A stretch of 61,201 nt of DNA, the filler included. It is 4 parts of 4 records of this genome, joined end to end, with 100 filler letters (N's around TTAATTAATTAA, not from the genome) between each part and the next. Parts side by side here need not be neighbours in the genome. Positions count along the whole stretch, not along the records: positions 41,423 to 48,491 come from DRR378314_1386; 3 more parts are not named here. One strand, given 5' to 3'. A program made the position numbers and the translations under genes. This document shows, one piece after another, positions 9,567-48,591 of this stretch (position 1 is its first letter; each line of letters begins with the position of its first letter). The notes below the pieces were generated by a model. It worked only from the letters and a program-made list of their open reading frames with translations, was not told the DNA's origin and did no database searches.

Positions 9567-12113
9567 TTAAGCGGAGTTCCTACTCGCATTAATGTTTCCG
9601 TAGAGTGAACGGGTCACTATCTTTTCGTATAGTTCTTTATACTTGGAATTTTGGGTGATGTGGTACAAGGCATTTTGCTGAATCACCAACAATGGCAATA
9701 CAATTTTTTCCCTGATTTTTACTGATTCCCTCGAAACAGCTTCATCCTCCATCAAAATCTTAAGTCCAGAAATCTGCAATAACATCTTTTTGGACAACTG
9801 GAATTCATCGTGCAAAATGTTCCAGAAGTCTCCAAACTCAGGGTCATCCTTCATATAACTGGTCAAATCAAAGTTGGATTTGGCCAAGGACATCATACTG
9901 TTCAGCATTAATGCCTTAAAGAAAGGAACCTCTTTGTAGAGTTTTTTCACCTCGTTCAATCGCCCCTCTTCCTTTAACTCCATAATGGCAGAACCCAAAC
10001 CGAAGTAGCCTGGAACATTCTGTTTTAACTGGCTCCAAGAACCTACAAAGGAAATGGCTCGCAGGTCGGAAAGCGTTAACTGTTTTTTGTTGCCACGTTT
10101 ACCCGGTCTACTACCAATATTGGCCTTGGTGTAATATTTTAGGGTACTCCTGTTTTCCAAATAAGGAATGAATTTCTCGTGCTGCTTCAACGCATCATAC
10201 TTTTCAAAACTTAGTTCGGAAAGTTCTTCAATCAATTTACGTTGCGCAGCAGAAATGGTATGCTCCTTGCCAAAAAGATTATTGCTCAAGCCAGCGGTGA
10301 GCATTTGTTCGGAATTGTGAATAAACTGCTCCTTAGTCCCGTAGGTACTGGTAATGGTCTGCCCTTGAATGGTAAGCTGAATCTCGTGATTGGCCACATC
10401 CTTGGTCTGGGCGGCGTAGAACCTGTGGGTCTTACCTCCACCCCTTGCCGGTGGTCCTCCCCTACCATCAAAGAAAATGGCACTGATTCCGTTTTTCTTG
10501 CAGACTTTGCTCAAGGTTTCTTTTGTCTTCAAAATGGACCAGTTGGCTTTTAAATACCCCCCATCTTTGGTACCGTCGGAAAATCCGAGCATTATGGTGT
10601 GAATGTCTCTTCTTCGCTCTAGGTGCCGTCTATATTGTGGTATATCGAACAAGGTTTGCATCACTTCTTCGGAAGCATCCATACCGTTCATGGTCTCGAA
10701 CAATGGAACAATATCAAAAGTGATTTCCTTCTCATCCCAACCGCACCATCTGAACAATCCAAACACGAACAACACGGAAAAAATATCTTCGGAATTACTG
10801 ATGATGTACCGGTTGCATCCATCTTCACCGTTTTTGTCTTGGATTGCTTTTAAATTTTGAATGTTGACAATGGTATCTTTTACAATGTCATCGTCAAAAT
10901 CTTTTGGATTGAGCTTAAAGTCCTTCTTGAGCAACAAATCCACCAACTCCTTTTCCTTGAGCTCATCCAAACTTGTTTTGATGGCCCCTTGCTTTTTCAG
11001 CACGGTTTCCACCACCATTTTATGTTTGCTGTGATCTTGACGGATATCCAAGGTTGCAAAATGTGTTTTAAAGATGTGGACCTTATCTATAAACTGATCC
11101 AACTCATCCAAATATAAGCCGTGATAATGTTCGATCAACTCTTCTCTAACGGCACCTAAATGTTCAATAATTCCCTCGTAGGAAATAGGTGCATCAGGAT
11201 TAAACATGGCCTGGTACATTTTACCGCTCAGCTCATTGAGGTGTCCCTGCATTCCTTTAAAAGTCAACTTTTTTCGAAGGTCCTTCAATTCGTTGTAGTA
11301 GCATTTCATCAAGGTAAGCCTGAGTTCGTCGGCCACATGTTTGGTGATGTCGGCAGTTACAAATGGGTTTCCATCTCGGTCACCTCCAGGCCAAAATCCA
11401 AGCTTCATCAAGTTGTAGTTCTCGAACTTTTCGTCCTTGATATTACTTTTTACATATTGATAAAGCTCTCCAACGGCATCATAATAGGTGTTTCGAAGAA
11501 TGTAGATGATGTTTTTCGCCTCATCCAAGGGCGTAGGTTTTTTTGCATTGATCAAAGAGGTCAATCCCAATTGTTGCAAGGTTACATCAATATCATGGAT
11601 TCTATCTTCATCAATCAACGAACGTAGTTCTGCGATGATATCCAAAACGGCAGGTGTATAGAACTGTGTGGGGTGGGCCGTTAAAACGATGCGTGCACTA
11701 AAGGTGGAAAGTTTTTTGGAAACCTTGTCCCAATTTTTGGTACGGTTTACCAATTCAAAATAATCCTTTATGGTCAACGAACTACTGTACTCTTGCAATT
11801 TTGGGAATGCTGAATCTTCCACACTGTCGTAAAGTACCACTTGACGCTCCACATATTGAACGATTCTGAACATAAAATCCAATCGCTCCCGTTCGTCCTG
11901 AATATCCACAAAGTTGGAAAAGAAGACCTCCAAAATCTCCTGCGGCTCCTTGCCTGCCTTTAGTCCTTTCTCGCATTGATCGAGCAAAAGTGGGATGAGA
12001 ATCCCCACATTTTCCACATTCTTGTAGGGCAAGCTAAGGAAAAGGCTGTTATAGATATTGAACTTATTGGTTACCGATTTTTTAAACTCTTCTAACCGTT
12101 TAGTCTGCTGCAT
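9567..12113 (-). CDS. ppc: Phosphoenolpyruvate carboxylase
   Basis: VLTAHPT, WPGGDRDGNP, VPLFET, MLGFSDGTKDGG, GRGG...RGG, LRAI, C-terminal RNSA. Confidence 0.95.
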   Translation of the reverse strand: MQQTKRLEEFKKSVTNKFNIYNSLFLSLPYKNVENVGILIPLLLDQCEKGLKAGKEPQEILEVFFSNFVDIQDERERLDFMFRIVQYVERQVVLYDSVEDSAFPKLQEYSSSLTIKDYFELVNRTKNWDKVSKKLSTFSARIVLTAHPTQFYTPAVLDIIAELRSLIDEDRIHDIDVTLQQLGLTSLINAKKPTPLDEAKNIIYILRNTYYDAVGELYQYVKSNIKDEKFENYNLMKLGFWPGGDRDGNPFVTADITKHVADELRLTLMKCYYNELKDLRKKLTFKGMQGHLNELSGKMYQAMFNPDAPISYEGIIEHLGAVREELIEHYHGLYLDELDQFIDKVHIFKTHFATLDIRQDHSKHKMVVETVLKKQGAIKTSLDELKEKELVDLLLKKDFKLNPKDFDDDIVKDTIVNIQNLKAIQDKNGEDGCNRYIISNSEDIFSVLFVFGLFRWCGWDEKEITFDIVPLFETMNGMDASEEVMQTLFDIPQYRRHLERRRDIHTIMLGFSDGTKDGGYLKANWSILKTKETLSKVCKKNGISAIFFDGRGGPPARGGGKTHRFYAAQTKDVANHEIQLTIQGQTITSTYGTKEQFIHNSEQMLTAGLSNNLFGKEHTISAAQRKLIEELSELSFEKYDALKQHEKFIPYLENRSTLKYYTKANIGSRPGKRGNKKQLTLSDLRAISFVGSWSQLKQNVPGYFGLGSAIMELKEEGRLNEVKKLYKEVPFFKALMLNSMMSLAKSNFDLTSYMKDDPEFGDFWNILHDEFQLSKKMLLQISGLKILMEDEAVSRESVKIREKIVLPLLVIQQNALYHITQNSKYKELYEKIVTRSLYGNINASRNSA

Positions 12114-21255: not shown

Positions 21256-21355
21256 NNNNNNNNNNNNNNNNNNNNNNNNNNNNNNNNNNNNNNNNNNNNT
21301 TAATTAATTAANNNNNNNNNNNNNNNNNNNNNNNNNNNNNNNNNNNNNNNNNNNN
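21256..21355. other. Artificial contig spacer
   Basis: N-run + TTAATTAATTAA (stops in all six frames) + N-run, 100 nt. Confidence 0.99.
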
Positions 21356-25323: not shown

Positions 25324-26820
25324 CTAAGCGGGTGTGGTGATGGAAGCCGTGTCAGCCGTGGCAGGTTTTGCGACATGAGAAAACCTGAGCATCATCGCAT
25401 CACCCGAAAGCGCACGTAGCCTGCAGCAAAGCCTCTCCCCCCCAACAAGATCAAGGGTGCAGCTTTGATCAGGGCGCGATCCGATGGTTGTGCCAAAGTG
25501 GGACAGTTCAGATAAGACCGCTGCATTTGCCACTCTTGGCGCCCATAGCTTAAGCGCATCATGGAGTGTCATATCGGCGAAACTGGCCTCAGGGGCGTGG
25601 CCCCACATCCCGCGATATGCGGCATTGCAAAATGTCAGAACTCCAGTGGCAGAGAAAACAACCAGCGCATCATCGACACTGTCCAGAAGCGCCTCGAATT
25701 GTTCTACCTCGGCGCGGTAACTGCGCGACAATGTGACCTCGGCACTGATGTCTTCGATCAGGAATGCGGTTGTTCCGTCAGGATGCTGGCGGCTTTGTAC
25801 GGTATAGGTCCGCCCATCTTCCAGCGACCATGTCTCGTGATATTGTCCGTCTGATGCAGCGGCGATGACATCGGTAATGTCCTGTCGCCATGACCGGTAG
25901 TTTTTCGGCTCCGGCATCCGGCGGTTTTCGCGCAGCGCATCAAAGAAACCCAACATCGTCGGGTGTGTCGCAAGAAAACTGGCCTGTAACCCGGAGAGGT
26001 CAACCAAGGCCGGATTAAAAATGCCCAGTTGACCGCGGTTGTCGAAAATGGCCAGGCCAATAGGAAGATGCGCAAAGGTTTTGGCAAGGGTTTGGACAAA
26101 GCTGCGCTGCGCCTCTTCTGCCCGGACCAAAGCAGTAACCGGGGTGGCGTGATGGATTCCGCCCCGTGCCACCGCATGGGTCTCAACCTCAAACCACTCA
26201 TTTTCATCACCTGACCCCATCAGCAAGCATCGTTGCTTCTGTTTGGTTGGATCCAGTGCAAATAAGGTGCCATTCTGAGCCGCCCCAATATCGCTGACGA
26301 GCCTGTTATAGGCGTCGTTTTTCCAGACCAGCCTGCCCGTTTCATCGGTTTCCCAAGCGGGATGCGGCATGGTCCTGATGCAGTGTTCCGATGGCCCCGC
26401 ATCTTGCGTCATGCGACCCGCTGCACGGTCATCACCCACGGGTTCATACATGTGAACCCAACACAGCCCATCACGCCAGTTCATCTCAATTTCGGACCTG
26501 TCGCCTATGTCTTTTGGACGAATCCTTATGCTGCCGGCTGCACCGGATTGGGGAAGCTCCGGAAAATCGGGAAACCGCTCTATCAGAATATCGCGCAGAT
26601 CGTCCCAAACATGCGTGCTGGGGGCAAAAGCAAAGCGTTTCAGCGCATCGGTATTGCCATGATGCAAGATGCCGTCATCAAATAAGAGCGCCAGGGGTTC
26701 CGATGATACATCAGGCAGGCAGGGCGCGGAGGAAGGTGGTGAAATCAGGAAAGACCGCGCGATCAATGCGGTGGTCGCGGCAATGGTCGTGACAAAAATG
26801 AGTTCGGAAACAGCCAACAT
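25324..26820 (-). CDS. divL: Membrane-anchored multi-PAS protein, Rhodobacterales DivL-like (no kinase domain)
   Basis: N-terminal TM, PAS repeats, LRENRRMPEPKNY.SW motif; position between regB and tsaE; upstream CtrA box. Confidence 0.65.
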   Translation of the reverse strand: MLAVSELIFVTTIAATTALIARSFLISPPSSAPCLPDVSSEPLALLFDDGILHHGNTDALKRFAFAPSTHVWDDLRDILIERFPDFPELPQSGAAGSIRIRPKDIGDRSEIEMNWRDGLCWVHMYEPVGDDRAAGRMTQDAGPSEHCIRTMPHPAWETDETGRLVWKNDAYNRLVSDIGAAQNGTLFALDPTKQKQRCLLMGSGDENEWFEVETHAVARGGIHHATPVTALVRAEEAQRSFVQTLAKTFAHLPIGLAIFDNRGQLGIFNPALVDLSGLQASFLATHPTMLGFFDALRENRRMPEPKNYRSWRQDITDVIAAASDGQYHETWSLEDGRTYTVQSRQHPDGTTAFLIEDISAEVTLSRSYRAEVEQFEALLDSVDDALVVFSATGVLTFCNAAYRGMWGHAPEASFADMTLHDALKLWAPRVANAAVLSELSHFGTTIGSRPDQSCTLDLVGGERLCCRLRALSGDAMMLRFSHVAKPATADTASITTPA

Positions 26821-41322: not shown

Positions 41323-41422
41323 NNNNNNNNNNNNNNNNNNNNNNNNNNNNNNNNNNNNNNNNNNNNTTAATTAATTAANNNNNNNNNNNNNNNNNNNNNN
41401 NNNNNNNNNNNNNNNNNNNNNN
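41323..41422. other. Artificial contig spacer
   Basis: N-run + TTAATTAATTAA + N-run. Confidence 0.99.
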
Positions 41423-41470
41423 GGGAGATCCGAATTATACGCAAGCGTTTTTAATCAGAAACTTTAAAAA
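41423..41470 (-). promoter_or_regulatory. rRNA-operon P1-type promoter (UP element, -35, 16-bp spacer) cut at contig edge
   Basis: Minus strand: AT-rich tract, TTGCGT, then ATAATTCGGATCTCCC (16 nt ending CTCCC, as in E. coli rrnB P1 before TATAAT). Confidence 0.65.
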
Positions 41471-41599
41471 AGAGCCCGTTAGTTTAAAAAACAAACTAAA
41501 ACATCTAAAAGACGCTATTTAGTGACTAAATTATCAGCAATATCTCTCGAGGGGAATTTAAGTATTGTCTAATTTTTGTATTTATCAAGTTTTAGATAT

Positions 41600-41627
41600 A
41601 AAAAAGCGCCATTAATTAACAGCGCTT
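41600..41627 (-). terminator. Intrinsic terminator after cnoX
   Basis: Minus strand AAGCGC-TGTTAATTAATG-GCGCTTTTTT. Confidence 0.75.
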
Positions 41628-41650
41628 GAGCTTATAATCTATAAAATTGA

Positions 41651-42508
41651 TTAATACAGGATGCTGTAGAGCTTTCTTCTATATTTAGATGCTAAGCTAT
41701 CGCCATCAGGTAATGATGCTATAACTTCAAGAAATGTTGACTTGGCATCTGCAAAGTTTAAATCTTTCTTTAAAATGCTAAACAATGTTTCTAATGCTTC
41801 TTCTTTTCGGCCTGCGGTATTAAGTGCAGCAGCTAACTCTAGCTTAATATCTAAATCATTCGGATATTGCTCTGCTTTTAACTGCAATGCTTTTATCTCT
41901 GGTGAATCTGTCGCTTCAAGAGCTTGTTCGCACTTAGCACGAATATTTGTGTAATACGCATCACGCTCACCTTCTTCAACTGTATCAAGCAGTGCTTGCG
42001 CATCATCTAATTTATGAATTTGAATACAAATATCTGCTAGCACTAATTTAATGCGTGCATTTGTGGTATCTAGTTCGTAAGCCTGCTTCGCATAATTAAA
42101 TGCACTATTTAAGTCTTTTGCAACGAGAGCCTGTTTTGCTTGTTCTAATAACAACTCATGTTGTGCCGGTAAGTGCTTTGATAAAACATCTCTAACTTGT
42201 TGCTCTGTTTGCGCACCAGGCAACATATCTACCGGGGCCGAGTCTTTTAAAAACACTAGTGTTGGTAGTGTTTGCAAACCAATTTGCTGTGCTAGTTGCG
42301 CAGCCAACTGTTGCTCTACATCGCAATCAAGTGTCGCAACAAGTAAATGCTCAGGATATTCACTTGCAATTTTATCTAGGATAGCAGCTTGCGATTGACA
42401 CTCAGGGCTTTGTGCAGAATAGAAACTAAGCAACACAAGTTTCTCTTGTGAGGTTTCACCTAATACTTGCTGAAGGTTTTGTGGATTAACATTTACCATA
42501 TTATTCAT
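41651..42508 (-). CDS. cnoX: Chaperedoxin CnoX/YbbN (thioredoxin + TPR)
   Basis: Thioredoxin fold with SPEC in place of CxxC, LPTLV, TPRs, C-terminal YRRKLYSILY. Confidence 0.88.
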   Translation of the reverse strand: MNNMVNVNPQNLQQVLGETSQEKLVLLSFYSAQSPECQSQAAILDKIASEYPEHLLVATLDCDVEQQLAAQLAQQIGLQTLPTLVFLKDSAPVDMLPGAQTEQQVRDVLSKHLPAQHELLLEQAKQALVAKDLNSAFNYAKQAYELDTTNARIKLVLADICIQIHKLDDAQALLDTVEEGERDAYYTNIRAKCEQALEATDSPEIKALQLKAEQYPNDLDIKLELAAALNTAGRKEEALETLFSILKKDLNFADAKSTFLEVIASLPDGDSLASKYRRKLYSILY

Positions 42509-42593
42509 TGCGATTAATTGCCATATCAGACTATTTAGGGTTTTATATGGTGTCGATAACAATAATTACAAGCCACCAGCCAAAAGGTCTTTT

Positions 42594-43904
42594 ATGAAAT
42601 TTCACAAAATATATGCAGCCTTACTCTTTATTAGCCCGCTCACAAGTGCCACAACCTTAGATCTCAATCTCGATAAAGCCATGCCTGCTATCGAAAAGTT
42701 GTATTTAGATTTACATCAATCTCCCGAACTTTCATATCGAGAACAAAAAACAGGTCAAAAAATTGCGCGGCAATTAAAGCAAATTGGATTCGAAGTTACT
42801 GATAATGTCGGTGGATTTGGTGTAGTTGGTCTTTATAAAAATGGTGATGGCCCAACAGTGATGATCCGCACTGATACCGATGGCCTTCCTATAACAGAAC
42901 AAACGGGTAAGCCATATGCATCAAAAGTTACAGTAGTGAATGACGATGGCGCGAATGTGGGTGTTATGCATGGCTGTGGCCATGATATTCATATGAGTTC
43001 ATTTATTGGCACAGCACAACAACTTGTTAAGCATAAAGATTCGTGGCAAGGAACATTAATGATGGTCGCGCAACCCGCTGAAGAAGTCGGTGGCGGTGCA
43101 AAAGCAATGCTAAAAGAAGGTTTATTCTCTAAGTTCCCTACACCTGATCACGTGATAGCATTACATGTTAGCGCGAGTGTTCCCGCTGGTAAAGTGAGTA
43201 TGAAAAACGAATACACGATGGCCAGTGTTGACTCTGTTGATATTACAGTAAAGGGTAAAGGCGGACACGGTGCTTACCCACACACAACTATTGACCCTGT
43301 TGTTATCGCATCGCGGATTGTATTAGCACTGCAAACCATTACTAGCCGGGAACTTTCCCCGCTAGAGCCTTCAGTTATAACAGTTGGTTCTATTCATGGA
43401 GGTTCGAAGCACAATGTAATCTCTGACGCAGTAAAACTACAACTTACATTACGCAGTTATAATCCGGACGTACGTTTACAGCAAATTGCCGCTATTAAAA
43501 GAATTTCACAAGGAATTGCTTTAAGCGCAGGCTTGGACAAGTCGCTTATGCCAGAAGTATATGTACATGAAGATGAGTCAATTCCATCAACATATAATAA
43601 CCCTGATCAAACAAATATTGTACGCAGTGCTATTAGCTCGGCCATTGGAAAAGATAACGTGCTAGAAACGCAAGCCGTTATGGCTGGCGAGGACTTTGGT
43701 TTATATGGCCGAACCGAACAAAACATTCCTATTACTTTATTTTGGCTTGGTGGTGTAGAGCAATCTCAATATAGTGCAGCACAGGAATCAGGGCAAACTC
43801 TACCGTCATTGCACTCGAGTAAATTCGCCCCAGATTACAAAGTCGCCTTACCCACAGGTATTAAAGCGATGAGTAATGCAGCCGTTGCGCTGTTTAATAA
43901 CTAA
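42594..43904 (+). CDS. Secreted M20D amidohydrolase (hippurate hydrolase-like)
   Basis: Signal peptide; LHQSPELS, RTDTDGLP, MHGCGHD, QPAEE, GGHGA.PH, GEDF, LHSSKF. Confidence 0.88.
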   Translation: MKFHKIYAALLFISPLTSATTLDLNLDKAMPAIEKLYLDLHQSPELSYREQKTGQKIARQLKQIGFEVTDNVGGFGVVGLYKNGDGPTVMIRTDTDGLPITEQTGKPYASKVTVVNDDGANVGVMHGCGHDIHMSSFIGTAQQLVKHKDSWQGTLMMVAQPAEEVGGGAKAMLKEGLFSKFPTPDHVIALHVSASVPAGKVSMKNEYTMASVDSVDITVKGKGGHGAYPHTTIDPVVIASRIVLALQTITSRELSPLEPSVITVGSIHGGSKHNVISDAVKLQLTLRSYNPDVRLQQIAAIKRISQGIALSAGLDKSLMPEVYVHEDESIPSTYNNPDQTNIVRSAISSAIGKDNVLETQAVMAGEDFGLYGRTEQNIPITLFWLGGVEQSQYSAAQESGQTLPSLHSSKFAPDYKVALPTGIKAMSNAAVALFNN

Positions 43905-43917
43905 ATCGACTTTGTAA

Positions 43918-45515
43918 CTAGGCCAACTTTGCTTTTGGTTTAGCCTTTCTTTTAAAACGTCGCTTTTGCGGCGTTTTTGGTAATTGTGCAAAAACTTGGC
44001 TATTACATTGCCCTGCTAGTCCGATGAAATGTGATAAATCGTTTAATAACGGAGTTAAAAACTGTTGGTAGCTCATACGCTGCTCTGCAATATCCCCTAA
44101 TGAGGCTTCCCATTTTGCCGTTAAATCTGGGCTTGCCAAACCTTCAGGTAATACTCCTATAAGTGCTTTTCCTGTTTCAGTGGCTAAAATGGTTTTACCT
44201 TGGCGTTGTAAAAATCGGCGCTTGAATAATAACTCTAAAATACCTGCACGCGTTGCTTCTGTGCCTAAGCCATCAGTATCTTTGAGAATTCTTTTAATAT
44301 CTGGGTTTTTCACATAACGACTTATTCCCGTCATGGCACTCAACAAGGTTGCATCCGTAAAATGTGCAGGCGGAGTCGTCATTTTATCAACCACTTCGCC
44401 ATGGGAACACTCAAGCACTTGCCCCTTAACTAACGGCGGTAAAGTTTGCTGATCTTTTAGCTCTGATTTACCCATTAGTACTTTAAAACCTAAGCTGATC
44501 TCTTGTTTTGCATTCGCTTTAAATAAACCACCAGCAATGGTTACCTCAACCTTTGTTTCATTAAATATATAGTCAGGATAGAACTGAATGAGGTAATGCC
44601 GACATACTAGGCTATATACCTTTGCTTCGTCTGAATTTAAGCTTACCGACTTTAATTGTTTAGCAGTAGGAATGATAGCGTGATGCGCAGCTACCTTTGC
44701 ATCATTAAAGCATTTACTACGCTTACTGGTATCGGCCTGACTACAGTGAATTGCACTTTGCCCCCCATTGCTAGCAATCGCTTTTACAATGCTTGCAGCT
44801 TCCCGGTGGTGATCTTTTGGTAGATAACGATTATCTGAGCGCGGATATGTGATGAGCTTATGGCGTTCATACAAAGTTTGGCAAATATCTAACACTTTTT
44901 GAGCTGGCATCGTAAACGCTTTCGCTGCATCTATTTGCAGGGCTGATAAATTATACGGTAAAGGGGCTTGATGTTTTTTCTGCTTTTGCTCAAGTGCCGT
45001 AACTTCGCCTTTTTGTCCTGCTATTCTTGATGCAACATTCTCTGCAAGACCACGATGTAGTACTCGCCCTTCTTCATCTTGATAAGGCTCACATGCCTTG
45101 CTTGGTTGCCACTTAGCTGTAAATTTTTGTTGCTCCCCCGTATTTAAATGAGCAAACACTTCATAAAATGGTTTTGCTACAAAATTAGTAATTTCATTAT
45201 CACGATTTACCACTAACCCTAAAATAGGTGTTTGTACACGCCCAACAGAAAGCACATTACCAAACCCCGCTTTTTGCCCAGCTAAGGTATATGCACGTGT
45301 TAAATTCATACCAAATAACCAATCGGCGCGAGAGCGCGCCAGTGCAGAAACACTCAATGAAATAAAGTCACGATTACTGCGAATACTTGCCAACGCTTTC
45401 TTTACTGCACTAATATTTAAATCGCTGATTAATAAACGTTGAATTTGTTGTTTTTTGGCTTGGCTAAGTTTTACTTGCTCAATCACCTCATCAACAAGTA
45501 ACTGCCCTTCTCTAT
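43918..45515 (-). pseudogene. topB: DNA topoisomerase III, 3' part; N-terminal TOPRIM half displaced by an inserted element
   Basis: Frame starts ..NREGQLLVDEVI (native DPDREGQ), then SVGRVQTP, ITYPRSD (catalytic Tyr), AHHAIIPT, GLGTEATRA; in-frame TAA at 45526-45528. Confidence 0.88.
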
Positions 45516-45581
45516 TAACATGTAATTAAAGGTATTGACAGTCGACATTTAATTATTAATCTTGACAACATTGGAGGGGAT

Positions 45582-47036
45582 ATGACGTCAAATAAACAAA
45601 ATTTAAAAAAGAAAAATAGAACTAAATTTATCGACGCACTGACAGATTATGATTTAGAAATAAGTAGTAACTCTATTAGCGAAAAAAGTAGAGAGTTCTG
45701 CTTATCTGATGGAAGAAGTTATTTTAAGACTCAAATAAATTATCGACCACTGGATCACGAGCCTTTATTTCATTTTCCTATGTTATTTAATAAAGAAGGT
45801 TCACCTTGGTATGAGGGAAATCAATTTCTCTTGAGTATTGCTTTAGACCACAGTTTTGAGTACACCCCCTTAAAGATAGCTAGAAAGGCATCAGCACTGC
45901 TGGATTACCAGATGTGGTGTGAAGAAAATGATGTACAAATGTTTAACTACAGTGCAAGAAGACCCAAGAATAGACCGTCGTATAGATACTTTTCTTATCT
46001 ACTGAACGAAGGGAAATCAGCAGGAAATCTAAACACAAGAACTAAGCTTGTTTACGACTTTACTTGCTATTTCAGTTCAAAGTACCAGATTGATAAAGAT
46101 AGAATCGACAAGGTAACAGATGTCCAAAAAAATTATTCGTCTAAAACAGGTGAAACCTACAAAAAGAAGCTAAAAAAGCGCTCACAAACTAAAGCTCGCA
46201 ACAATAGCAAACCATCCGTAGACGATAGCTTAGTGCTGGATGACGGTGAATATCTAAAACCATTAGGTGAAGACCAACAAAAAATATTGTTTAAACATAT
46301 AAAGTCATCTTCATTCAATGTTGATGAAAGACAGATTTTTCAATTTGCCGTAGACACAGGTGCGAGAAAGCAATCTATTTTGACACTGCGTCTCAAGCAT
46401 TTAGAGCACTTTAAACCTGAAAACCTGAAAACAGATGGCACGTACGAAATTAATGCAGGTCAAGGGTGTTTGATGGATAGTAAAAATAGCAAAAATATAA
46501 CAATTAAAGTGCCCTCATATTTAGCAGAGAATTTGAAAATATACGCAAACAGTAAAGCTGCAAAAAAGCGCAGGAAGCTATTTATTCAGAAATATGGAAA
46601 CATATTTACCGATCCTAATGAAATATATGTTTTTCTTGGAAAAAGAGGTGACTGTCGATACATGGCTAAGTCTGATCCCAGGTTTAGTAGTACCCGAACA
46701 CCACCCTCTGGAGGATCGATTCAGACCATAGTTAATAGGTTATTCAAAGTATTAGAAAAAGAGAATGAAGGAAACCATATTCCTAGTGACTTTACTTTTC
46801 ATTGGTTGAGGGCGACCTTTGCCTACAACTTGTATTTGCATCTTCTACCTCTTGTAGACGCTAAAAAGATGACATACTCAGATCAAATAGCGTTTATTCA
46901 AAACGCATTAGGCCACGATGATCCTTCAACAACCGAAAACTATTTGAAGCTGTTCACCTCCGAAAATGTATTAGAAGAAATGCAAGAAACTTGGGAAGAG
47001 CGTCTATTCCAAAAGTCTGCTTTTGATCTGGTGTAA
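45582..47036 (+). CDS. Tyrosine recombinase / site-specific integrase
   Basis: TGAR (R), SK (K), FHWLRATF (HxxR), LGH...TTENY (H, Y); RBS GGAGG. Confidence 0.92.
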   Translation: MTSNKQNLKKKNRTKFIDALTDYDLEISSNSISEKSREFCLSDGRSYFKTQINYRPLDHEPLFHFPMLFNKEGSPWYEGNQFLLSIALDHSFEYTPLKIARKASALLDYQMWCEENDVQMFNYSARRPKNRPSYRYFSYLLNEGKSAGNLNTRTKLVYDFTCYFSSKYQIDKDRIDKVTDVQKNYSSKTGETYKKKLKKRSQTKARNNSKPSVDDSLVLDDGEYLKPLGEDQQKILFKHIKSSSFNVDERQIFQFAVDTGARKQSILTLRLKHLEHFKPENLKTDGTYEINAGQGCLMDSKNSKNITIKVPSYLAENLKIYANSKAAKKRRKLFIQKYGNIFTDPNEIYVFLGKRGDCRYMAKSDPRFSSTRTPPSGGSIQTIVNRLFKVLEKENEGNHIPSDFTFHWLRATFAYNLYLHLLPLVDAKKMTYSDQIAFIQNALGHDDPSTTENYLKLFTSENVLEEMQETWEERLFQKSAFDLV

Positions 47037-47038
47037 AT

Positions 47039-48491
47039 ATGTTAGTAGAAAGAAAAACACAGTTGATGTCGATTGAAGAATTCAACGAAGTAGAAGTGAT
47101 GGACTTTACTGCGGTTAGACTAAAACACCCGCTCAAGCCAGAGACAGGCAGGCCAATAGATCTTGGCTCACTGGCTTTTTCTAAAAGACAGAAAACGAAC
47201 GAAATTAACTCAACGTCAGGCAATCGTGCTACTTTAGTTGATTTAAACTCGTTAAGACCTGAGCGCTCGTTTTTTATTTCCAATTTTTCTGGAAATTTAG
47301 GAAAAAGTGCTACAACACAAAAAACAAATCTGAAGGAAATAATGCCAATCTGTGACTGGATGGATTCGAATGGATACGAAAACTACCTAGAAGGTAAGCA
47401 GCAATTACATGATGCATATTTGGCATATACCACTCACCTCAATAACCGCTTAAAAAGTAATGATGATGCAATAAAAATCACATCAAGAGTAGCTAAAGAT
47501 AAGCAATGGATGTGTCGCAAGCTAATTGATATCGCATTCCCTGGTGAGTTAGACGCCATCATTGGTGGAATTAAAACAATCAAAGCAGCTAAAACACCTA
47601 AAGCTATTATCAAGTCTAGCTATGTTGATCATTATTGGGAGTTAAATTTAGAGTTATTCAATAAATTTTCTGCACAATTTATTTCAAATGATGACTTTCC
47701 TCCACATATCAAAACACCAACAATTAACAGCTATTACATGCCTTGCCACTCTAGGCAGCTACCGATATTGATACCAGATATACAGTCAATCAATAAATAC
47801 ACAGCGAATAAAGCACCAATAACTTATTTTGATTATTTCAATGGCAAGCCAGTTAGAGCAACCGATGATCATACTAATCGCGAAAAAGACAAAATTAATG
47901 AATTTACTCAGATATTTACTGAAATAAAAGCTAATAAGCTATCTCAAGATCGTATTAATCTTGCAATGAGGGCCAAATATGCATTTATTCAATGTTTTAG
48001 AATTTTAACCCGAATTAACAACGCTGAATTAATTAAGCTAGCGTATATAGAGGAATATAAAAAAAAGCGGGATGTATTGGCTCAGGGCTTCTATGAAGTA
48101 AAATTTAGAGCTAACGATAGACACGTAAAGTTTCGAATAAAAACACAAGGTTACCTTCTTTTTAAAAAATATTTGGAGTTAAGGAAACTTCTTTTAGACG
48201 GAAAAGAATGTCCATATCTATTTTTTTCACTCGGTGAAAAAAATATTGGTACGCCACAACAATTGAACCGTCAACATACAGATAAACATCATAGTTATCT
48301 CAGAAAAATGGGTTTTTTACATGAGGAATCGAAAGCTTTAAAGGACCAGGAACTTAGAAATCTGAATACTCGATTTTTAAGGAAGTTAGGTTTCTCTGCC
48401 AAGGAGGTTGCTGACAATAACAATCATAATGTGGAAGTAGCAGATGAAATCTATGCTGCTACCCCAGCAGAGGAGCAAGTTGAAGAGTTAG
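47039..48491 (+). CDS. Integrase-partner protein with a degenerate tyrosine-recombinase-like C-terminus (3'-truncated)
   Basis: 2 bp after the integrase; TRINNAEL, VKFRA, YLFF, QELR, NNH......EIY. Confidence 0.6.
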
Positions 48492-48591
48492 NNNNNNNNN
48501 NNNNNNNNNNNNNNNNNNNNNNNNNNNNNNNNNNNTTAATTAATTAANNNNNNNNNNNNNNNNNNNNNNNNNNNNNNNNNNNNNNNNNNNN
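48492..48591. other. Artificial contig spacer
   Basis: N-run + TTAATTAATTAA + N-run. Confidence 0.99.

Follow-up and report, generated by a model that had tools for sequence, protein, structure and literature searches.

A putative SE-type element inserted in topB of a Pseudoalteromonas contig probably replaces topoisomerase III rather than switching it off

The window analysed here is a 61-kb stretch of DNA (61,201 nucleotides, filler included) made of four contigs, one of which (41423-48491; 7,069 bases) carries a Pseudoalteromonas topB gene that is interrupted by an integrative element at the codons of its TOPRIM metal-binding motif, DPDREG. This locus raises the question of what becomes of topoisomerase III in a strain that carries the element. 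A preliminary description of the locus held that the enzyme is off during integration and could be restored by excision. The evidence presented below points instead to a site-specific element of the SE type, which replaces topB rather than switching it off and which would form its circle by copy-out without leaving an empty site; we assign this reading a probability of about 0.75. The topB contig shows the intA-proximal junction (attL) only, and the right-hand features of the element are described from its relatives.

Interruption of topB in the window

The features at and around the junction are as follows. Relatives of the element are cited by locus (L) or genome (G) number.

43918-45515, minus strand: promoterless 3' remnant of the host topB, extending from codon positions 2-3 of the second Asp in DPDREG to the stop codon
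45510-45515, no strand assigned: putative 6-bp crossover, ATAGAG in the topB sense and CTCTAT on the plus strand
45516-45546, plus strand: left terminal repeat, the counterpart of motif C, with the sequence TAACATGTAATT...ATTGACAGTCGAC, which is also conserved at L051, L048, and G733
45516-45581, plus strand: non-coding left arm from the terminus to intA, with two TTGACA-type repeats at approximately 45537 and 45563
45582-47036, plus strand: intA, encoding a tyrosine recombinase of 484 aa (PF00589, E 1e-12), which starts 66 bp from the break
47039-48491, plus strand: tfp-like second core gene, first 484 of approximately 641 codons, its frame entering the N spacer at the contig end

On the minus strand, the break reads TAA-TTA-CAT-GTT-AAT-AGA-GAA-GGG-CAG, i.e. 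stop-L-H-V-N-R-E-G-Q-L-L-V-D-E-V-I, and the junction sequence is CTGCCCTTCTCTA/TTAACATGTAATTAAAGGTATTGACAGTCGAC, where the slash marks the junction here and below. Nineteen Pseudoalteromonas loci were retrieved with the topB fragment as query; the 11 orthologues aligned (L006-L016) all read through the site and have GGT GAT CCC GAT/AGA GAA GGG or a synonymous sequence (GGN GAY CCN GAY/MGN GAR GGN). In the junction alignment, the 'AT' of the second Asp codon (45515/45514) is the point from which the window matches these intact orthologues, and this is the codon to which the preliminary description had assigned the break. Its two further structural claims, an integrase about 66 bp away and some 530 uninterrupted codons including the catalytic Tyr, were likewise borne out: the Phage_integrase-family gene of 484 aa starts at 45582, and the remnant (43918-45513) contains 531 open codons, matches Pfam Topoisom_bac (PF01131, E 6e-110), and keeps the catalytic-Tyr motif TYPRSD.

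The nearest orthologue, that of Pseudoalteromonas sp. 3D05 (L006), is 98% identical to the remnant at the amino acid level and 98.6% at the nucleotide level, and the remnant contains neither a frameshift nor a stop. The remnant and its two neighbouring genes share 98.6-99.5% nucleotide identity with the uninterrupted L006 (three genes), and the same species therefore occurs both with and without the insertion. Relative to L006, the remnant has accumulated 9 nonsynonymous and 14 synonymous substitutions (dN/dS 0.18); the ratios for the neighbouring genes are 0.10 and 0, and the counts are too small to indicate relaxed selection. The host is assigned to Pseudoalteromonas, a genus of the Gammaproteobacteria, as in the published host range of SEs.

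The 6-bp crossover covers positions 2-3 of the Asp codon, the Arg codon, and position 1 of the Glu codon. Its sequence in the window is identical to that of the intact L006 and L007; it is host-derived and adjoins the intA-proximal terminus of the element. We infer its exact boundaries in the window itself.

Relatives inserted at the same six base pairs

Three relatives have an attL in the same orientation at the same 6 bp: L051, L048, and G733, whose IntA proteins are 62, 52, and 49% identical to that of the window, respectively. The L051 junction is TTGCCCTTCTCGG/TTAACGTCTAATTACAGGGGTTGACAGTTGAC, with ACCGAG as its 6 bp and a flank that holds TopB residues from 103 onward. That of L048 is CTGACCTTCTCTG/TTAACATGAGATA...TATTGACAG, with ACAGAG as its 6 bp, and reads H-V-N-R-E-G-Q; two cargo genes, one of them SIR2-like (region 461-1762), lie between the element end and intA at this locus. 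The attL of G733 reads ...CATGTTA-ACCGTG-AAGGACAA. In the window and in all three relatives, the terminus TAAC... adjoins the same positions of the Asp-Arg-Glu codons, and intA is directed away from the topB remnant. A further probable case is found in P. aurantia, where an IntA with 87% identity and a TopB fragment that ends at DPDR (P0179) share the organism name and the contig size (28465) and appear to lie on one contig.

A large protein collection contains IntA relatives in a cluster of 12 members with 99% identity, in P. aurantia (87%), in P. gelatinilytica (83%), and at 62%; the named relatives belong to Pseudoalteromonas, Shewanella, Vibrio, and Colwellia. Close IntA relatives are rare among species-representative genomes: the best identity was 40% among 140 Pseudoalteromonas genomes, and samples of 401 genomes each from the order and the family gave 41 and 49%, respectively. 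A scan of genome and metagenome contigs with the single IntA sequence gave no match, and an alignment-based scan did find relatives.

At 13 loci with IntA relatives of 25-44% identity (plasmid L001, L002, and L028-L038), no topB was found in the available flank; these elements use other targets, or their ends lie beyond the reach of the flank. No topB was found in the short left flanks of L049 (49%) and L050 (46%) either, the sequence upstream of L049 matching the interior of L048 and its element end lying past the contig. Near relatives are thus located at topB and distant ones have no topB in their flanks, so that the choice of target follows the IntA sublineage. Site-specific use of the DPDREG codons by this lineage is supported. 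The proposal that a conserved coding motif serves as the attachment site consequently stands, L051, L048, and G733 sharing junction and orientation, and the suggested check, whether integrase homologs recur at topB DPDREG, gave a positive result for these three relatives (49-62% identity) and none for those with 25-44%. A one-off insertion, which had been offered as an alternative, is unlikely in view of this recurrence at the same 6 bp.

The right junction and a second topB gene

Both junctions of an element of the window's lineage could be read in G733. Its attR lies on a separate contig, where topB codons 1-106 run into element DNA (GAT CCT G-ATCGCG-TAACAATC...) with the translated tail RVTINHHKFD..., which ends at TAA. 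A complete topB of 639-640 aa starts 5 bases after the TAA of this N-terminal fragment, on the same strand, and the C-terminal fragment of the host gene is found next to intA, on another contig. Where the host homology of one junction overlaps that of the other, the shared stretch is exactly 6 bp long and thereby defines the crossover. The two copies, ATCGCG at attR and ACCGTG at attL, differ at two positions, as expected for the 'footprint' in the published account of SEs (PMC10214605).

Another right end is preserved in G839 (contig C59, 8030-12023; L083), where host topB codons 1-107 are followed by a right end with TTGACA repeats and, approximately 120 bp on, by a topB of 646 aa (its ATG taken at 11494). 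This right end reads CAACAACTAATTGTCAAGTGATTGACAGTGAC... with the tail RATTNCQVIDSDYF..., and the RATTNCQVID... tail type is that of P. aurantia P0179. A decayed host C-terminal piece (residues approximately 415-624, with one stop) lies 0.9 kb past this topB, and no recombinase genes were found within 16 kb. G839 looks like the fossil of a completed replacement, in which an element-borne topB occupies the place of the host gene. In both G733 and G839, the second topB follows the truncated 5' fragment at a distance of a few bases to approximately 120 bp and lies downstream of the host promoter.

The right end of G839 is an imperfect inverted repeat of the left end in the window, the terminal YAACAWSTAATT agreeing at 9 of 12 bases and the ATTGACAGTSGAC box being common to both; the element lineage has terminal inverted repeats of the form TAAC...GTTA with common ATTGACAGTSGAC boxes. 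By analogy, the element in the window probably ends in the same manner as those of G839 and P. aurantia P0179.

Second topB genes are not confined to these two genomes. A full-length copy is present in 7 of the 7 topB-inserted elements or remnants that could be read far enough (G504, G498, G750, G512, G528, G733, and G839). The cargo TopB proteins are 54-55% identical to the host type and 60-94% identical to one another, and all of them keep the AEKPS, DxD, and TYPRSD motifs. Three of the five cargo copies inspected differ at or beside the target, with GDPDRVG in G498 and G528 and GDVDREG in G733; it may be speculated that these altered residues shield the cargo topB from targeting. TopB proteins with at least 61% identity to the cargo type occur in 22 of 401 genomes of the family, and in three of the five checked (G648, G681, and G649) the gene is the only, native topB, so that identity to the cargo type alone is no mark of an element.

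Census of truncated TopB fragments

The first 105 residues of TopB were compared with proteins of 57-184 aa, and the best 120 of 564 matches were classified. Fifty-seven of these break directly after GDPD, 56 go on to REGQ or RVGQ and represent contig ends, frameshifts, or other breaks, and 7 lack the motif. Conserved element-derived tails are carried by 48 of the 57 GDPD breaks: 33 have R[AV]LL tails, which are those of the second lineage described below and come from hosts including Vibrio anguillarum, Photobacterium damselae, Marinobacterium lutimaris, and an Alteromonadaceae bacterium; 13 have [RKL][AV]T-x5-[LFIV]D tails, those of the window's lineage; and 2 have R[EQ]YCYT tails. The remaining 9 tails are of other kinds, and some are probably artefacts. 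Among the fragments, P0186 and P0227 have the tails seen in G733 and G839.

Short TopB fragments on long contigs were also seen to end at approximately residues 125-130, near KKQQ (P0133, P0140, P0180, and P0189); these ends may mark another recurrent break point or may be frameshifts. The census of Pseudoalteromonas genomes also yielded an N-terminal TopB piece of 136 residues in G516. In G549 (5.1 Mb, family sample), no TopB-type match to the Pseudoalteromonas TopB was found, the sole match (28%) being a TopA-like frame of 892 aa.

A second lineage at the same site and other break points in topB

When the 140 Pseudoalteromonas genomes were surveyed with full-length TopB, split topB genes were found in at least 4 of them among the matches listed. 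Two genomes of the genus (G504 and G498) and one of the family sample (G750) contain an SE-like element of 14-24 kb at the same 6 bp as in the window, inserted in the opposite orientation. At the near junction, the N-terminal fragment runs into GATCCCG-ATAGAG-CACTGTTACGATATTTT with the tail RALLRYFNE..., and the far junction reads ...CTTGTAACATTG-ATGAAG-AAGGGCAG. Between them, on the same strand, lies an operon with genes for a recombinase of 440 aa and for proteins of 600, 633, and 154 aa, followed by a topB of 640-646 aa whose start overlaps the stop before it. The proteins of this second lineage are 25-29% identical to those of the window's lineage and of related plasmid modules, and the gene order is alike. 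The 6 bp at the two junctions are unequal in G504, G498, and G750 (ATGAAG, ATGCCT, and ATGCTG at the far junction against ATAGAG, ACCGTG, and ACCGCG at the near one), and conservative excision that keeps the attR spacer would therefore give DPDEEG, DPDA-stop, and DPDAEG, respectively.

Other elements split topB elsewhere. An SE-like element of approximately 22.5 kb in G512 (contig C15, junctions near 26145 and 3600; L044/L045) interrupts the gene at K-L-I-T/Y-P-R-S-D, inside the codons of the catalytic-tyrosine motif; it has a core of 532/630/655/163 aa, type I restriction-modification-like cargo, and a topB of 646 aa. A third element, in G528 (contig C1, 1835311-1855109; L046/L047), splits topB at S-V-G-R-V-Q/T-P, at approximately residue 200. 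Its module encodes proteins of 774, 761, and 173 aa, which have no Pfam match, followed by a 465-aa tyrosine recombinase, and has no BLAST similarity to the SE-like cores; its topB is 93% identical to the copies in G498 and G504. The cargo of G504, G498, G512, G528, G750, and L048 includes genes that resemble defence genes, namely those for a SIR2-like protein, a HipA-like kinase, and, judging from gene sizes, a type I restriction-modification-like set. An open reading frame of 176-202 aa (MTK.IKLNE.IY.LL.EK...) is conserved near the int-distal end in five elements.

Left arm and core genes

TTGACA-type repeats like those of the window occur in the left arms of L051, L048, and G733, with several further copies at the right ends of G733 and G839, and they presumably bind the recombinases. 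A scan for sigma-70 promoters and terminators around the junction, left arm included, found nothing above shuffled sequences.

Residues R262, H407, R410, H445, and Y454 of IntA are invariant in an alignment of 12 relatives; from the motif positions, R262, H407, R410, and Y454 are the candidate RHRY residues. IntA is 37-40% identical to the first gene product of four-gene modules on Vibrio and Pseudomonas plasmids. These modules, found in Vibrio, Pseudomonas, and Stenotrophomonas, consist of co-oriented genes for proteins of approximately 480, 640, 690, and 135 aa; they are linked to the window's genes by BLAST matches and are uncharacterised. The second protein of the window has no Pfam match, nor does its counterpart in L051; it is 62% identical to the 641-aa product of L051 gene 2 and 22-24% identical to the gene 2 products of the plasmid modules.

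The complete core can be read in L051, where four genes in SE order encode proteins of 481/641/673/131 aa, the first two of which are each 62% identical to those of the window. A co-oriented four-gene core is also present in L048 and in the plasmid modules L001 and L002, and the window shows the first two genes. No Pfam match was obtained for IntB of L051. The third gene of L051 is a large-recombinase homolog (35% match to the third gene of L002), and the third genes of G498 and G512 give weak to moderate PF00589 matches.

Proposed mechanism and alternatives

We propose that the element integrated into the crossover ATAGAG at 45510-45515 and that the remnant at 43918-45515 would be a recently orphaned, promoterless pseudogene. 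By analogy with the relatives, attR would leave topB codons 1-105 behind the host promoter, with a complete, divergent, element-borne topB directly after them, and topoisomerase III would be supplied by this gene, transcribed from the host topB promoter. As in other SEs, the circle would form by copy-out, and no empty attB would arise. The element would in this way gain a target that is nearly invariant across the Gammaproteobacteria at no knockout cost. What the sequences show is the site, the orientation, the terminal repeats, the 6-bp overlap, the core genes, and, in relatives, the second topB; that this copy too has such a gene, that the host promoter drives it, and that copy-out leaves no empty site are drawn by analogy.

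Several observations weigh against this proposal. The topB contig stops before the right end, intB, srap, and the cargo, and the replacement topB is thus read from relatives. No second topB was found in the first 11.6 kb of L051 or the first 14.2 kb of L048, the far ends of both lying beyond these stretches; if the window's lineage is built as in G733 and G839, the second topB sits at the far end, past the part read. The best 120 relatives of the cargo TopB include no P. aurantia protein on the 28465-base contig. G750 holds a separate, unrelated, intact topB besides the inserted element, and disruption with replacement is therefore not always the only topB state of a cell. The lack of an empty site is extrapolated to the window's lineage, because only other SEs were tested, and the likeness to SE-6283 and SE-6945 is drawn from their published descriptions rather than from sequence comparison.

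The excision switch put forward in the preliminary description, in which topoisomerase III would be silent for as long as the element stays integrated and the gene would be rebuilt by regulated excision, agrees with a site-specific insertion within a coding motif and with a remnant that is still intact. Both 6-bp variants of G733 (ACCGTG and ATCGCG) re-encode D-R-E, so that clean excision could restore the frame there. Moreover, Logan contigs of runs X2 and X4, which come from different studies, begin two letters before 45488, approximately 30 nt short of the junction. A break of this kind arises in a k=31 graph where the topB-side 30-mer has two continuations, and it would fit coexisting occupied and unoccupied copies, other causes being possible as well. 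Against these points, relatives carry a complete topB behind the host promoter, the fossil in G839 is a permanent replacement, no excisionase-like gene was seen in the L051 core, and the unequal spacers of G504, G498, and G750 would yield DPDEEG, DPDA-stop, or DPDAEG on excision. The SEs tested in print give no empty site according to the published accounts (PMC10214605, PMC9345347). The switch is accordingly very improbable, and the claim that topoisomerase III is off and restorable is not supported. The accompanying statement that no replacement 5' end is supplied is correct up to 48491; it can be judged no further, since the contig stops within the second gene of the element.

It is also conceivable, though unlikely, that this particular copy lacks or has lost a cargo topB and that the strain is a topB null. 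In Escherichia coli, topB is dispensable. The cargo of this copy lies past the contig end, no second topB is seen in what could be read of L051 and L048, and SE cargo is variable in the published account (PMC10214605). All seven of the topB-inserted elements or remnants that could be read far enough carry topB, however, and in the window's lineage the gene is located at the conserved right end beside the terminal repeat, outside the variable cargo, with a right-end tail type that is conserved in 13 database fragments. A chimeric join of topB and an unrelated integrase contig at 45515 might be suspected in a record that is a mixed, concatenated assembly of short contigs, all the more because no Logan contig has at least 31 letters on each side of the junction. 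The same junction architecture is nevertheless present in the independent assemblies L051, L048, and G733, in contigs of X2, X4, and X17, which come from other studies, the element (97.5-98.8% identity) is joined to 14-28 letters of the topB side, and the break coincides exactly with the 6 bp used by all relatives. A misassembly, which the preliminary description had named as a possible refutation, is thus exceedingly improbable.

Replacement of topB by an SE-type element therefore remains the preferred reading, and it may be extended, tentatively and with considerable doubt, to topB in general. On this extension, topB would be a landing pad for several independent multi-recombinase lineages in marine Gammaproteobacteria, each aimed at the DNA of one invariant catalytic motif (DPDREG in two orientations, SVGRVQTP, or ITYPRSD) and each equipped with a divergent topB that, besides compensating for the disruption, may take part in transposition by unlinking or processing nicked or single-strand-bridged copy-out intermediates. 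Decay of the elements would then lead to repeated in-place xenologous replacement, of which G839 would be a fossil.

Composition of the window

The four contigs of the window differ in G+C content, come from at least three organisms, and are separated by the following artificial spacers, each consisting of N44-TTAATTAATTAA-N44.

21256-21355, no strand assigned: artificial spacer
41323-41422, no strand assigned: artificial spacer, left bound of the topB contig
48492-48591, no strand assigned: artificial spacer, right bound of the topB contig

Adjacency across the spacers is meaningless. The neighbouring contig (21356-41322; approximately 57% GC) shares 99% identity with genome G001 (57% GC), to which the topB contig has no match at all, and the other two contigs gave nothing past short conserved stretches when compared with G001 and the Pseudoalteromonas genome G002. 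The right edge of the topB contig falls within the second gene of the element, and the remainder of the element and the 5' part of topB are located off the contig at 41423-48491. A contig edge 2.5-3 kb past the topB stop is common to the window (41423) and most Pseudoalteromonas drafts (L006-L024); this shared edge, past a thioredoxin/TPR gene, suggests a repeat, perhaps an rRNA operon.

Implications

With these results, a class of mobile elements that is young and little studied gains a widely used target in the codons for the TOPRIM metal-binding motif of topoisomerase III, and the strategy of disrupting a conserved gene and bringing a copy of it, noted once for bcp, now appears systematic. 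They account for the many truncated open reading frames of approximately 110-150 aa annotated as 'toprim domain' or 'DNA topoisomerase III' in marine genomes, and they indicate a natural route by which a housekeeping gene can be replaced in place. Annotators should not count a topB that is split beside an integrase as loss of topoisomerase III. The clean, conserved attB sequences are also suited to testing SE integration.

Comparison with known systems

SEs form circles by exchange of one strand between attL and attR and leave no empty attB, as described for the elements studied (PMC10214605, PMC9345347). According to the same literature, the circle takes with it the 6 bp next to the intA-proximal end, the elements use a small number of target sites, and the hallmarks of the ends are imperfect terminal inverted repeats of 13-19 bp and a split attB that is kept in attL and attR (PMC10214605). 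The lineage described here shows these hallmarks in G733, where both junctions were read, with the 6-bp overlap and TAAC...GTTA termini, and the left end in the window pairs with the right end of G839. Like SE-6283 and the other SEs, the elements of the window's lineage have a four-gene core at one end (a tyrosine recombinase, a putative non-catalytic fold protein, a large-recombinase homolog, and a small protein), imperfect terminal inverted repeats, a 6-bp spacer, and marine gammaproteobacterial hosts. SE-6283 (Tn6283) inserts in bcp and encodes a thiol peroxidase with 54.8% identity, for which the authors suggest compensation (PMC5991714, PMC9345347). It thus resembles the topB elements in using a specific site in a conserved housekeeping gene and in carrying an approximately 54%-identical homolog of the gene that it disrupts; it differs in that the target here is the DPDREG codons of topB and not bcp, and that the replacement gene is located at the terminus, just after the 5' part of the truncated host gene. 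The validated SEs include one from V. anguillarum (PMC10214605). Truncated TopB fragments of the GDPD-break type occur in this species, and topB may already be listed as a target in a supplement.

GInts resemble the elements of the window's lineage in having a four-gene recombination operon at one end and in inserting site-specifically; their insertions are at gene ends, targets such as ssb are common to unrelated GInts, and some leave no empty site. The published GInt operon consists of ginA and ginB, both catalytic, a non-catalytic third gene, ginC, and ginD (PMC5385486), whereas here it is the second gene that lacks an integrase-family match, and the third encodes a large-recombinase homolog. 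GInts are reported to insert without full inactivation of the gene, and the published account describes no replacement gene. Identity with GInts was rejected, the gene order of the window and the L051 core being different.

The skin element in sigK, the phage in comK, and the mutL elements are not known to carry a replacement gene and undergo precise, regulated excision. Like the element in the window, they interrupt a coding sequence at a defined site; unlike them, relatives of the window's element carry a replacement, and the SE family is reported not to regenerate attB. A skin-like excision switch is disfavoured by the intact second topB in relatives and by the unequal spacers in G504, G498, and G750.

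The recA mobile elements (RMEs) of Vibrio cholerae offer a parallel, in that they disrupt a housekeeping gene of DNA metabolism and bring their own copy, a comparison that the authors of SE-6283 also draw; as described there, RMEs are a family of ICEs (elements that are both integrative and conjugative) with different recombination machinery and a different target (PMC5991714). Tn554 has two tyrosine recombinases and a small protein, target specificity, and a 6-bp footprint, as here, but in the published comparison nothing in it corresponds to the second (tfp) gene, and it occurs in Firmicutes (PMC10214605). No paper was found in which topB is described as serving SEs, GInts, or other integrative elements as an attachment site, in a search to which the supplementary insertion-site tables of 35 SEs are external, and 'topB' is absent from the main texts of PMC10214605, PMC5385486, and PMC10121019. 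The type of element is thus known, and the distinctive features of the present case are that two lineages use one 6-bp site, that other elements are inserted at two further TopB motifs, and that all of them carry topB.

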